NCBI GenBank assembly: GCA_000091205.1
Contig: AP006501.2
From: Cyanidioschyzon merolae
Lineage: Eukaryota
Length of the DNA: 64,000 nucleotides
Reading direction: 5' to 3' (one strand)
Made by a program: the position numbers and the translations under genes. Below, piece after piece: positions 2,502-6,145 of the stretch. Positions within the stretch are counted from its first letter, which is position 1. Each line of letters starts with the position of its first letter. Under the pieces are notes generated by a model. That model saw only the letters and a list, made by a program, of their open reading frames with translations, did not search any database and was not told the DNA's origin.

Positions 2502-3761
2502 TCAAGGTGATTCGGGTTCGGGTTCGGATTCGGGTTCCAGTTGCGCAACGATAACGCTCGCATCGTCACCCTTCCCAGGACAAACAAGTCTCGGCATGCG
2601 TTCCGATATGTAAGGATCGCAATTGGTGCAGCTGGAGAAGTTATGTGCGAGTTGTGCCAGTTGATAGCTTAACAACACTGGATCTATGTGGGTAAAGGTG
2701 CCCAAGCAGGTCCGATTCGCCACCGCCAGATTCGAATCATACGCAGAAGAGACCGGACACACCAGCGCGAGAATCTGGCTCTCACTGATATTATCGAAAA
2801 GGCCATCCGTCCCAAATATAACCGTATCGTACGCTCGTAGTCGGAACACGTCGAGGTAAATGGGCACCACATCACCCGTACACGTCTCGATCGTGATGCT
2901 GGTGCGTTGGGTTTCCGGATTCCCCTCGATGCCGTTGAGGCTCGAGAACACAATTGTTTGATCACGAATCACGAGGAACCCGATATTGCCTGTACGCACG
3001 GCATAGAGCAGATTCCCATTGTTTGCGAGACATGCCGCCAGCACCGACACCGAACGCACTGCTTCGGGCGGCCGCATATGCGTCACGGCATCACGGAGAC
3101 AGCTGAGTAGTTCGAAGCGTGGTTGCCAGTTTCGTCCTCGAGCGGTGTCTTGCTCCGATTCAGAAAAAAGCACCTGTTCAATGAACCCGTCTAAGATGTT
3201 GCGCACATGGTACTGCGCCGTGTACATATGCGCCAGTTCTACATCGCGCGTGTCCTTAATCGGTGCGAATGCCGCGCGAACAACACCACGCTCAGTGGCG
3301 TAGAGAACGTGACCGCAGTCCGCAAGGCCCACCGCGCCCTTCCCCTCGCAAACGAAGACCGTGTCCGTCGACCCCGAGAGAAGCAACGCCTCACCAGGAA
3401 ACGTTGTACCTTGTTCCGCACTAGGACGATCGCCGATGATCTGGTACGTTCCACACCGAAAGACGCACCGCTGCTCTGAGACTGCAAGCGGACGCTGCTC
3501 GTTGTGCGGCTCGCTCCGCAACGACAGTTTCGCCACGCCGCACCGCCGCTGTGCCTCGTGTGAGTGCTGACCGCGCAAACACCTCAGTGCAGACGCCGAC
3601 GAGAAGAGGCTTCCGCGATAAACACACGTGTTAATAACGAACTGCAACGGATTATCAGGTTCAACTGGCTGCCGCAACGAGCTTGGGGTTTCTTTGAACA
3701 GAGTGCCGCCTCGTTGCCTGCCGAGCGACCGCATGGCGAAAACGTACCGCCTGCTTGGCAT
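2502..3761 (-). CDS. PPM/PP2C-like protein phosphatase, divergent
   Basis: 419-aa ORF with an ATG start. PP2C-like blocks: LANNGNLLYAVRTGNIGFLVIRD (cf. VANVGDSRAVL), VIFGTDGLFDNISESQI (cf. LILASDGLWDV), C-terminal GKGDDASVIVAQL (cf. SKDNITVIVV). The N-terminal ~120 aa are not obviously PP2C. Confidence 0.4.
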   Translation of the reverse strand: MPSRRYVFAMRSLGRQRGGTLFKETPSSLRQPVEPDNPLQFVINTCVYRGSLFSSASALRCLRGQHSHEAQRRCGVAKLSLRSEPHNEQRPLAVSEQRCVFRCGTYQIIGDRPSAEQGTTFPGEALLLSGSTDTVFVCEGKGAVGLADCGHVLYATERGVVRAAFAPIKDTRDVELAHMYTAQYHVRNILDGFIEQVLFSESEQDTARGRNWQPRFELLSCLRDAVTHMRPPEAVRSVSVLAACLANNGNLLYAVRTGNIGFLVIRDQTIVFSSLNGIEGNPETQRTSITIETCTGDVVPIYLDVFRLRAYDTVIFGTDGLFDNISESQILALVCPVSSAYDSNLAVANRTCLGTFTHIDPVLLSYQLAQLAHNFSSCTNCDPYISERMPRLVCPGKGDDASVIVAQLEPESEPEPESP

Positions 3762-3872
3762 AGACAGTGACCGGAAAGCTGCACCGAAAACGCCGTTGTG
3801 CTCTTCTCGAGCCTGTGTTCCGAGACCTGCACGCCGCCTCCAACAAACGCCGTTCTAAAGAAAAGGCTGCTG

Positions 3873-6145
3873 TCACCAGTGGTACAGCAGTGGCGCGCCA
3901 CGCGCCCCCCAGACAAAACGTCTCGAGCAGATGCGCAGATGCCCTTCAGATTTCTTGAACCGGCCACCCAATACTGCTTCCAACTTCTTTTCATATAGTT
4001 CAACTTTGAGAGGTTGTCCAAGAAAATTTTCTCTTGACAGCTGTGGAGGTCGTTTCTCCAGCAGCGCACATTTCCTTATATTGATTGCGGCGTTAAAGTC
4101 ACGATTCACAAACTCCATATGTTTCTTGCCATTGGTAGTTGGACTCACTAGTGCAAGCAATCCACGAACTTTCGCCCTCCTTTTCATTTGCTCTTCCGTC
4201 AGCGGTCCGTACTTTTTTACATCCTCAGGGCTTCGCTGATATTTTTCCATCTCGACCGTCTGAAGTGTGCACCCCAGTTCATGGTGTGTATAGGACGTTC
4301 GGAACTCATCTGCAGGTATCGTAGCGAAGCTCCGTGCGCACTTCTTGTACGTTCTTGTTGTTGGAGCTGGCGTAGTTCCTTTTTTGGGTCCTCCATCGCC
4401 CTGCTCCGTATGCTACTACGAGCCTTTGACTTTCATCCTCCTTCAAGGCGCTCAACTGACTGAAAAAGTTGGCGACTGCAAGCCGCTTCCCACAATACAG
4501 GTTCATAAGCAGACGGGCCCATCGAGGCTTTGTATACTCCTCCCACAGCGCATCCCAATGAGCAACGCGAACTTCCATAAACTCCCGAAAAGCGTTAGAG
4601 TCCGCTCCTCGGGTCGTCACCTCGCTCAAAGCCTCCAGGTGCTCTTTCATTCCTGAATTCCATGTAATGATTTTCTTCCTTGCATTCATTACGCCGGATC
4701 CTCGGTAGTATCTCGCTCTCGAGAACCTCAACAGACGCATGTCTTTCTGACGTGAGTTGCCGTCAGTACCATCTTCCGCGCGCTTGGGAGCAGCGATGGT
4801 TACGATATTCGTAACCCCAGGGTCCGCGCCAACGACAAAGTCGTTATCCTGCACTTTCTGTGTGGCACAATCTGCCTCCTTCTCATCTTCATGCTTCGTC
4901 ACGGACACTATCGAAGACGGAACTGGACGATCCGCCTTCAAGCGCCGATAGTGAACACACATGGCTACTCCATCGGTTTCGATCACCCCTGTGAATACCT
5001 TTTGTTTGCTCACTTTCAGACTTGTGAAATCGAAGATATTCTTCCAGTACGTGTCCCGGTTTTCACCGGTACTCTCCTTCCTGCTGACATTAAACTCGGG
5101 GCTGAACTCCTTCATGATGCCGTAAAGGATTCTGGAATCGATAGTCACAAAATGTGACTCGATGTTGGACAACGGAACGACGTTGAAGCGCTTACCCAGA
5201 AGCGCAGCCTTTCGTCTCCCCCACTCTTCATTTTTTCCTCACTCAGCTTCATCTCTGCCTTGCGTTCGAGCTCACGGTCCAGAAACACAAAGTAACGCAG
5301 GACGTGGCGGTAGTATCTTTCGTTATCTTTTTTCAACTCTGATATGTTTGCTGCTCGGTTCGCCAACCCCAGTACCGCACGATGCTCTTGTATAGCCGCT
5401 CGGATGACGGAATCCTCATTCATGCTCCTGAGTGATTTCTTCTCGTCGATGAATTCAATCTCATCTTCATGCTTGCGATCGTTCGTGTTGCCATTGATAA
5501 TCGCCCATATCCCCTGGCGAATGAGACCGGGTAGAGTGCAAAGATGGAGCGTATCATGAAGTTCTTGAGGTTCATTGTTAAATGGTTCTTTAGACTGGTG
5601 AGGTAGTTCATCGCTCCGTAGGTGTAAATATTCGAATCCCCCCCTGTATCGAGTACCGTCGAAGCGGAACTCGGCGTAAATTTTGTGGAGGGCATGAACT
5701 CGCTCATTTCACCTAGACGTTTCACCGGTGCCAAGCATCCGGTGATGAAAAACGGTTTTGTTGAGAAAATCTTCCAGAATATGGACTGTTTTGATGTCCG
5801 TAACGTCATGATACCATTTTCTTAGGAAATCCACCATTCCTTGAGAAGCGTCACGAACACCGCTGGAGTTCGGCTCGACACGGTTCCAGATTGCCTCTCG
5901 AACGTTTTCCCTGTACGGATCCTTGGTATGTTGAAGAAGACAGGCTTTCACCGCCATCTCGTCGTACCGTCATCTTTTGCGTAGCCTTTGACGTAGGGCC
6001 TCCCGCTTTTACTTCTTCTTCTTATCCTGTTCCTTTGCACTTGGCACTGTTCTTCATTTTTTCGGGCTGCCGGCGACATTGGCGCCCAGGATCCTCCACT
6101 TCCCCTCCCGTAACTTTCCTTTTTCAATATAAAAAACCGAAACAA
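3873..6145 (-). pseudogene. Fanzor-type TnpB-like RNA-guided endonuclease gene with at least 4 frameshifts
   Basis: The reading frame switches between consecutive ORF segments. One example lies at 4250-4306: a third frame restores ...FRTSYTHHELGCTLQTVEMEKYQR. Catalytic-looking residues are retained. Confidence 0.65.
3876..6116 (-). mobile_element. Fanzor/TnpB-like element, copy A (~2.24 kb, degraded)
   Basis: Colinear ORF segments on the minus strand (5948-6145, 5709-5957, 5420-5809, 5145-5423, 4306-5172, 3873-4250) jointly encode a ~700-aa protein. It carries [12 protein letters not shown] (RuvC-I-like) and EFVNRDFNAAINIRKCA (the classical TnpB/Fanzor RuvC-III motif). Homology to copy B begins at ~6116 and ends just after the stop codon. 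Confidence 0.7.

Follow-up and report, generated by a model that had tools for sequence, protein, structure and literature searches.

The 3' ends of the Fanzor1 element CMe-1A typically lie close upstream of host start codons on the same strand in Cyanidioschyzon merolae, a red alga. This placement was observed for copies of the element, designated A to D, in a stretch of 64,000 nucleotides (nt) of contig AP006501.2 (NCBI GenBank assembly GCA_000091205.1), called the window in the following, and for CMe-1A junctions from metagenome contigs. On balance, we lean toward the reading that copies are integrated or retained next to genes and that host transcription starts in, or runs through, the 3' end of the element. 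A preliminary description of the window had proposed that the placement is not random and had named, without deciding among them, a preference for insertion near promoters, read-through transcription into host genes, and a retained regulatory activity as possible causes. In the window alone, the orientation (3/4 ends) was not significant (p = 0.31), and proximity (3/4 ends) reached about 7e-4 by hand arithmetic with a null of ~5.6% per end, a value for which C and D are not independent of each other; with 32 added junctions, non-random placement is strongly supported.

One protein-alignment scan of Joint Genome Institute (JGI) metagenome contigs yielded 80 loci (numbered with the prefix L), all from hot-spring samples. 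The CMe-1A copies in these contigs were 81–90% identical to the C. merolae consensus. A further contig, L092 (JGI sample 3300002182), was identical to window positions 3715–4049 over 335 aligned bases, the junction of copy A included; judged by this match, at least one metagenome sample holds a genome like that of C. merolae strain 10D. Given both the range of identities and the L092 match, the loci are best viewed as a sample of Cyanidioschyzon CMe-1A insertions. The 3' termini were located with a hidden Markov model of the last 339 nt, and genes were called with a dicodon model trained on long open reading frames (ORFs). Duplicate contigs were merged by similarity of flanks and downstream proteins, giving 31 distinct metagenome downstream genes in addition to four in the window; a 32nd junction was added by hand (minus copy of L078, with an ORF of 97 amino acids starting 23 nt from the end). 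Element-free intergenic regions, called with the identical gene caller, served as the null.

The nearest neighbor of the 3' end was a same-strand gene start in 26 of the 32 metagenome junctions (binomial p = 2.7e-4). A same-strand ATG was found within 150 nt in 18/32 junctions as compared to 5.6% in the null (p = 6e-15), at distances of 3, 14, 17, 18, 23, 23, 28, 38, 38, 40, 50, 56, 64, 90, 93, 112, 130, and 145 nt; the median of all 26 same-strand distances was 77 nt. The median length of element-free intergenic regions was 812 nt for divergent, 1467 nt for tandem, and 635 nt for convergent ones. The start codons next to the element are real, as judged from the N-termini of the encoded proteins, which are canonical for their families. 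Identified neighbors and the distances of their start codons from the CMe-1A 3' end are:

KTI12-like P-loop protein, 14 nt
Ubiquitin-conjugating E2, 17 nt
SEC11, 23 nt
Cysteinyl-tRNA synthetase (CysRS), 28 nt
eL43 ribosomal protein, 38 nt
eIF5B, 50 nt
SUMO, 56 nt
ATP synthase beta, 93 nt
Phosphoglucomutase, 112 nt
COQ6, 130 nt

The two ends of the element differed in this respect. An outward ATG within 150 nt was found at 18/32 of the 3' ends and at 2/17 of the 5' ends (Fisher p = 0.003), and the median distance to the ATG was 77 nt for 3' ends as compared to 460 nt for 5' ends, whose boundaries are less certain than the 3' termini (Mann–Whitney p = 2e-4). Furthermore, 3' ends were constant, and 5' ends were variably truncated or carried alternative 5' regions. 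Loci L019 and L064 have their 3' junction and flank in common and differ in their 5' regions (consensus position 4 and an alternative 5' region, respectively), which suggests that copies have recombined with, or been converted by, one another.

The window has a high density of genes, few introns, and a G+C content of ~57%. Its ORF 30643–31437 is 100% identical to CYME_CMS026C of C. merolae strain 10D; hence, the window is nuclear DNA of this alga, the host of CMe-1A. The repeats A to D were 83–86% identical by blastn to the 3169-bp CMe-1A consensus, taken from the supplement of Bao & Jurka 2013 (PMC3627910). In the available part of its description (Bao & Jurka 2013, Mobile DNA 4:12; PMC3627910), CMe-1A has ~150 copies in C. 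merolae, each ~80% identical to the consensus, lacks terminal inverted repeats (TIRs), has target-site duplications (TSDs) that could not be determined, and encodes a single 734-amino-acid protein, Fanzor1 only. The same part reports that its 5' 635 bp are common to TE-N2_CMe and that a TE-N2_CMe-like 5' module also exists as a separate element of ~70 copies (PMC3627910). A repeat of ~300 nt present twice in the window (11407–11738 and 18488–18796, minus strand) matches consensus ~84–282, which belongs to this module.

The ORF of the window element matches the 734-amino-acid CMe-1 protein. A profile of close relatives alone gave no matches in PDB. A wide profile of 40 family members, with distant relatives added from an exhaustive HMMER search, matched three solved structures, Parasitella Fanzor1 (9cf0, E = 1.1e-19), Spizellomyces Fanzor SpuFz1 (8gkh, E = 2.4e-10), and Guillardia Fanzor1 (9cer, E = 5.8e-6). 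Together with the identity to the consensus, these matches confirmed the assignment to the TnpB (Fanzor) family made in the preliminary description. Translations of copy A and its homologs contained the split RuvC motifs VGADPG, VDEFRTS, and NRDFNAAINI; as to a zinc-finger/TNB domain between RuvC-II and RuvC-III, no CxxC pairs were evident in the CMe-1 sequence. A Pfam search with the Fanzor ORF pieces and full homologs gave no match, PF07282 included; this domain appeared below threshold in one more distant relative (E = 0.0023). An AlphaFold2 model of a family protein was too poor for a fold search (mean predicted local distance difference test score 34.7).

The CMe-1A copies of the window are:

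Copy A: 3848..6281, minus strand, 5'-truncated, consensus 735–3169, 84% identity (blastn; four-copy 3'-end alignment)
Copy B: 6291..9473, plus strand, full length, 83% identity (blastn 6291..9467 = consensus 1–3161)
Fragment C: 29673..30195, minus strand, CMe-1A 3' fragment, 86% identity (blastn 30195..29675 = consensus 2645–3167)
Fragment D: 30185..30613, plus strand, CMe-1A 3' fragment, consensus 2739–3169, 85% identity (blastn)
Relic: 15966–16425, minus strand, consensus ~844–959 and 2849–3084, ~70% identity, internally deleted, old
Relic: 54261–54759, minus strand, consensus ~793–969 and 2872–3081, ~70% identity, internally deleted, old

The termini were set by the four-copy alignment, an nhmmer search over the 80 related loci, and blastn to the 3169-bp consensus. 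They lie at 3848 (A), 9473 (B), 29673 (C), and 30613 (D), i.e., 28–77 nt beyond the ends previously placed at 3876, 9416, ~29750, and ~30552, which turned out to mark the stop codon of Fanzor, intact or as a mutated remnant. Homology continued past these positions for ~60 nt more, to ...CTTTTGAAAGGCG(TT), where the published consensus ends too, and copy B has its terminal GGCG at 9470–9473. The identical 3' terminus was present in nearly all of the 80 related loci; in about 40 distinct copies, the 66 nt 3' of the stop codon were conserved up to a sharp terminus. The end itself consists of a terminal hairpin finishing in ...GAAAGGCG(TT).

Copies A and B each carry several frameshifts and stop codons. 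The Fanzor1 ORF of A is broken by frameshifts in a three-frame translation, and B has, besides frameshifts, a D-to-G exchange in RuvC-I. Copies A and B are arranged head to head, with the 5' end of B adjoining the 5' end at which A is truncated; fragments C and D are likewise head to head, with a junction at 30185–30195, and together form one palindrome. Insertion of copy B into copy A was rejected as an origin of the first pair, since the 5' part that A lacks does not reappear beyond B. L1-style twin priming was rejected for the head-to-head pairs, as the 3' end of the element is present on both arms.

The two old relics have a similar internal deletion (consensus ~960 to ~2850), and relics with a similar deletion were also seen in L024, L025, L031, and L045, which suggests that an old non-autonomous deletion derivative of CMe-1A itself spread. 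Another relic (20456–21765, plus strand) stems from a second Fanzor1 family that is more divergent: its amino acid identity to P0052-type proteins is 27–48%, and at the nucleotide level it has no similarity to CMe-1A. The 3' side of this relic is directed toward the stop codon of gene 22507–24885 on the minus strand.

The genes next to the copies in the window are:

Host gene: 2502..3761, minus strand, 419 amino acids, conserved in cyanidiophytes, no Pfam domain
Spacer: 3762..3847, minus strand, 86 nt between the terminus of copy A and the ATG at 3761
Host gene: 10218..10853, minus strand, 211 amino acids, its stop codon being the nearest feature downstream of copy B
DPH3/KTI11-type CSL zinc-finger gene: 29347..29598, minus strand, 83 amino acids (Pfam PF05207, E = 1.9e-23)
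CMS026C: 30643..31440, plus strand, 265-amino-acid DUF2505 protein, identical to the annotated 10D protein

The three gene starts of the preliminary description, 3761 and 29598 on the minus strand and 30643 on the plus strand, had been placed correctly, as supported by the conserved 419-amino-acid ORF, Pfam, and 10D identity, respectively. ATG 30643 is the annotated start, since the 10D protein is identical. The start of the 2502–3761 gene is either 3761 or the ATG that follows at 3734, and a start far downstream does not agree with its orthologs, whose N-termini are variable. Other parts had to be revised: the label 'PP2C-like' for this gene found no Pfam support even at E ≤ 10, and the distances of 90–150 bp from element to gene start became, from the true termini, 86 nt (A), 74 nt (C, to DPH3), and 29 nt (D, to CMS026C). 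Copy B had rightly been described as lacking a gene start near its 3' end; the nearest feature is the stop codon of the 10218–10853 gene at a distance of 742 nt, and this gene is real, as its syntenic ortholog in L091 is 73% identical.

Comparison with related loci revealed sites without the element. The order Vps52/prolyl-tRNA synthetase (ProRS)/DPH3/DUF2505/CBS/BRK is syntenic in Cyanidiococcus yangmingshanensis and another cyanidiophyte (L085–L089), and no CMe-1A homology was found in the DPH3–DUF2505 spacer of Cyanidiococcus (922 nt) or another relative (~730 nt). The DPH3–CMS026C spacer of C. merolae measures 1044 nt, of which 941 nt are the C/D palindrome; the DNA that does not belong to the element amounts to 74 + 29 nt for two divergent genes. 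Likewise, no element was present in the 1.5-kb spacer upstream of the 2502–3761 ortholog in the syntenic locus L091. The A/B pair lies 86 nt from the ATG of the 2502–3761 gene and 742 nt from the gene on its other side. A second, independent palindromic pair was found in L078 between CysRS and a small gene, whose ATGs are 28 and 23 nt from the outward 3' ends; more head-to-head junctions occur in L079 and L083/L084.

The 12–14 nt that follow the terminal hairpin were semi-conserved over 39 junctions, with the consensus TGTTGTTGGCGG. In a leave-one-out test with a position weight matrix (PWM), this tail scored +2.9 bits as compared to –4.4 at generic upstream positions (p = 1.5e-14). The first ~14 nt of the 86-nt spacer of copy A (3832–3845, TGTTGGAGGCGGCG) match the tail that follows most CMe-1A ends. 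When the PWM was run upstream of element-free genes, a weak sense-strand excess was obtained. The tail bases track the subfamily of the hairpin, which lies at ~3846–3913 in copy A. Two hairpin subfamilies were observed, with stems CGUUUUUC/GAAAGGCG and GUUCGA/UCGAAC (window 3846–3913; L076:1055–1120; L070:3820–3885). Single-sequence folding predicted the hairpin in both subfamilies with modest z-scores. RNAalifold predicted no consensus structure for 37 3' ends, in part because hairpin registers are slightly shifted and gap placement differs between the subfamilies; an Rfam scan of the window matched no family.

Additionally, variants of the element were noted. A unit of 75–80 nt just upstream of RuvC-I (consensus 2117–2196; L002–L084) occurs as one to five tandem repeats in many metagenome copies; in the Fanzor protein, it gives rise to a peptide repeat of variable extent, KHEE.KEA..ATQ.V.DND.VV. 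The 3' terminal hairpin region was also found as a ~95-nt copy (L010:923–1018, L042:4283–4363, L047:4373–4453, L075:4010–4101) that marks the outer edge of an alternative 5' region of ~930 nt and is located ~750 nt upstream of consensus 671. The hairpin may thus be present at both ends in some subfamilies, or these may be nested or tandem insertions. The window also contains tandem repeats of 110 nt x 2.9 (42465–42787, 98% matching), 15 nt x 4.9 (32229–32302), and 25 nt x 3.6 (33735–33823), and the hexamer GCACCA x 12 at 26536–26608 just upstream of the ProRS gene.

How does an element come to end at the start of a gene? For elements of the TnpB/Fanzor type, the guide part of the omega RNA is obtained only if transcription crosses the 3' boundary. 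Transcription of the guide from the 3' flank has been established for TnpB and Fanzor (PMC10530073). Many spacers in our sample (3–40 nt) are too short for an independent promoter. According to the reading that we favor, integration or survival of copies would be confined to the 5' edge of genes, with the 3' end of the copy toward the gene, and transcription of the neighboring gene would start within, or pass through, the last ~430 nt of the element. Transcription from or through the element end is proposed because spacers of 3–90 nt leave no room for an independent promoter and because the guide needs transcription across the boundary. The last ~430 nt would be kept by selection as the remaining element decays; such selective retention would explain both the solo 3' fragments and the head-to-head pairs. 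These pairs would arise from two gene-proximal copies by deletion of the DNA between them, and their outward 3' ends would serve two divergent genes. The identity and termini of the element, its positional statistics, the reality of the neighboring genes, and the element-free orthologous sites are matters of observation; the location of transcription starts and selection on the 3' segment are what we infer from them.

A pure insertion preference could produce a similar picture. CMe-1A would enter open, nucleosome-free DNA at or beside transcription start sites (TSSs), the proximity of the 3' end would reflect how the integration machinery anchors that end, and host start sites would stay in the short spacer, with the element adding nothing to expression. 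Promoter targeting is a trait of many eukaryotic transposons; the strong enrichment in divergent spacers with gene starts at both sides fits this explanation, as does the distribution of the spacers (3–145 nt, median ~50–77), which resembles that of short 5' untranslated regions (UTRs). However, the 3–30 nt before the eL43, CysRS, E2, and KTI12-like genes offer no room for a core promoter, the DPH3/CMS026C spacer retains 103 non-element nt for two genes, and an element that separates a promoter from its ATG would as a rule do harm if it did not substitute for that promoter. We regard a pure insertion preference as unlikely, if still credible. If the pattern were due to chance in a genome this compact, or to an ORF-calling artefact, any element in a short intergenic region would lie near a gene end. 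The window alone, with 3/4 ends of which C and D are not independent, and some native divergent spacers of down to ~210 nt are in keeping with this idea. It appears highly improbable in view of the element-free spacer medians of 635–1467 nt, a same-strand ATG within 150 nt in 56% of the junctions as compared to 5.6% in the null, the asymmetry of 3' and 5' ends obtained with one gene caller for both, and neighbors that are bona fide conserved genes with canonical N-termini.

A further explanation, nuclease-driven copying, concerns the arrival of the copies and is compatible with transcription from the element end. Together with its omega RNA, Fanzor would cut sites resembling the 3' flank of the donor, the broken end would anneal at the donor 3' boundary, and synthesis would run into the element from its 3' end over a variable distance before homology-free joining; Fanzor would then be the sole mobility protein. 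The constant 3' ends and variably truncated 5' ends would follow from such a process, and the semi-conserved tail of 12–14 nt over 39 junctions, which tracks the hairpin subfamily, as well as the recurrence of truncated head-to-head pairs with short junction overlaps point in the same direction. In the available part of the CMe-1A description, Fanzor1 is the sole encoded protein and neither TIRs nor determinable TSDs are reported (PMC3627910); efficient homologous recombination is known in C. merolae, as stated in the accessible part of a further paper (PMC3764038). On the other hand, the tail may represent the less-conserved last bases of the element itself, and head-to-head pairs can also be generated by two gene-proximal insertions followed by a deletion. 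No empty sites that would reveal a pre-existing tail were found in close strains, no transposon-adjacent motif is known for the CMe-1 Fanzor, and copies A and B of the window are dead. As a route for the arrival of copies we consider this rather improbable. Doubtful as well, if slightly less so, is a broader scheme for an ultra-compact genome that has hardly any other transposons, in which nuclease-triggered copying carries a Fanzor1-only element to guide-like sequences at the 5' ends of genes, omega-RNA read-out transcription supplies promoters or 5' UTRs for dozens of housekeeping genes, and palindromic tails act as bidirectional promoters.

Several points weigh against the favored reading, i.e., gene-proximal placement with host transcription from or through the element end. 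5' ends are also mostly directed toward gene starts (13/17). As they do so from further away, the bias is one of 3'-end proximity and not purely one of orientation. Element-bearing intergenic regions comprised 18 divergent, 9 tandem, and 4 convergent ones as compared to a per-base expectation of ~21%, 61%, and 18%; part of the signal is thus a preference for promoter-containing, especially divergent, spacers and not specific to the 3' end. Adjacency is not obligatory, since 6/32 junctions, copy B, and the two old relics of the window are not directed toward gene starts; the 3' sides of relics 15966–16425 and 54261–54759 face the stop codons of the plus-strand genes 14743–15204 and 51363–53114, respectively. 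In about one third of the cases, the spacers measure 100–440 nt and could hold native promoters. Start codons came from the ORF caller of this analysis, as did the null. The metagenome loci probably sample the ~150 copies of the same species and not an independent lineage. Finally, exact-protein look-ups for transcript-like contigs of CMS026C, the 2502–3761 gene, and DPH3 found none, and the literature, searched for TSS or 5' UTR data of C. merolae, offered nothing useful.

The placement of CMe-1A bears on two questions, the role of Fanzor nucleases for their eukaryotic elements and the transposase-free movement of Fanzor-only elements. A polar link of the guide-encoding end with host start codons would tie omega-RNA read-out transcription concretely to host gene expression. 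Should the tails act as promoters, an RNA-guided-nuclease transposon would have been co-opted on a large scale in a genome famed for its near lack of mobile DNA. A semi-conserved flank that results from guide-directed targeting would point to a nuclease-only mode of transposon spread. C. merolae is haploid, has ~4,800 genes, and permits efficient gene targeting.

Sequence and description of CMe-1A, as far as the published account was available, fit the copies of the window (PMC3627910). The polar association with start codons, the preference for divergent spacers, 5' truncation, head-to-head pairs, and the semi-conserved 3' flank appear to go unmentioned in that part of the CMe-1A description (PMC3627910). 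A keyword search of other C. merolae repeat and genome papers did not find these placement features of CMe-1A, and the positional bias of its 3' ends appears to be unreported in the literature as far as it was accessible. Compared to the characterized Fanzor1 proteins (SpuFz1, 8GKH; Parasitella Fz1, 9CF0; Guillardia Fz1, 9CER), CMe-1 shows profile-level homology and has RuvC motifs; in contrast to them, it is known here from its sequence alone and has no evident CxxC pairs, the ORFs of A and B are frameshifted, and C and D are 3' fragments. CMe-1A has a non-coding 3' end that, to judge from the aligned copies, is conserved up to the boundary, as would be expected if a guide were read from the flank as in TnpB omega-RNA systems.

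A precedent for the regulatory use of a TnpB-family guide beside a promoter exists in TldR, the nuclease-dead domesticated TnpB repressors of bacteria, which act in trans on a guide-matched promoter. In contrast, the contribution proposed for CMe-1A would come from cis-acting DNA or from transcription of the element end, and nothing suggests a repressor. Enrichment upstream of genes is shared with Schizosaccharomyces pombe Tf1 at RNA polymerase II (Pol II) promoters, yeast Ty3 and Dictyostelium TRE5 at Pol III genes, P elements, and some Helitrons and miniature inverted-repeat transposable elements near 5' ends, and for CMe-1A it exceeds chance (18/32 junctions; 5.6% in the null). Some promoter- or TSS-targeting transposons also insert with fixed orientation and distance, and the 'safe haven' logic of a gene-dense genome is common to them and CMe-1A. 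These transposons leave TSDs and depend on integrases, reverse transcriptases, or transposases that are tethered to transcription factors. CMe-1A has only an RNA-guided nuclease: its window copies and consensus encode a Fanzor1 ORF and no integrase or transposase, no TSDs were seen, and inspection by eye of the outer flanks of A/B and C/D revealed no evident direct repeats. Moreover, unlike these transposons, CMe-1A is placed downstream of the likely promoter region and upstream of the ATG in Pol II-transcribed housekeeping genes. Promoter-proximal placement of transposons is a known phenomenon; what appears to be new is its occurrence for a Fanzor-only element.

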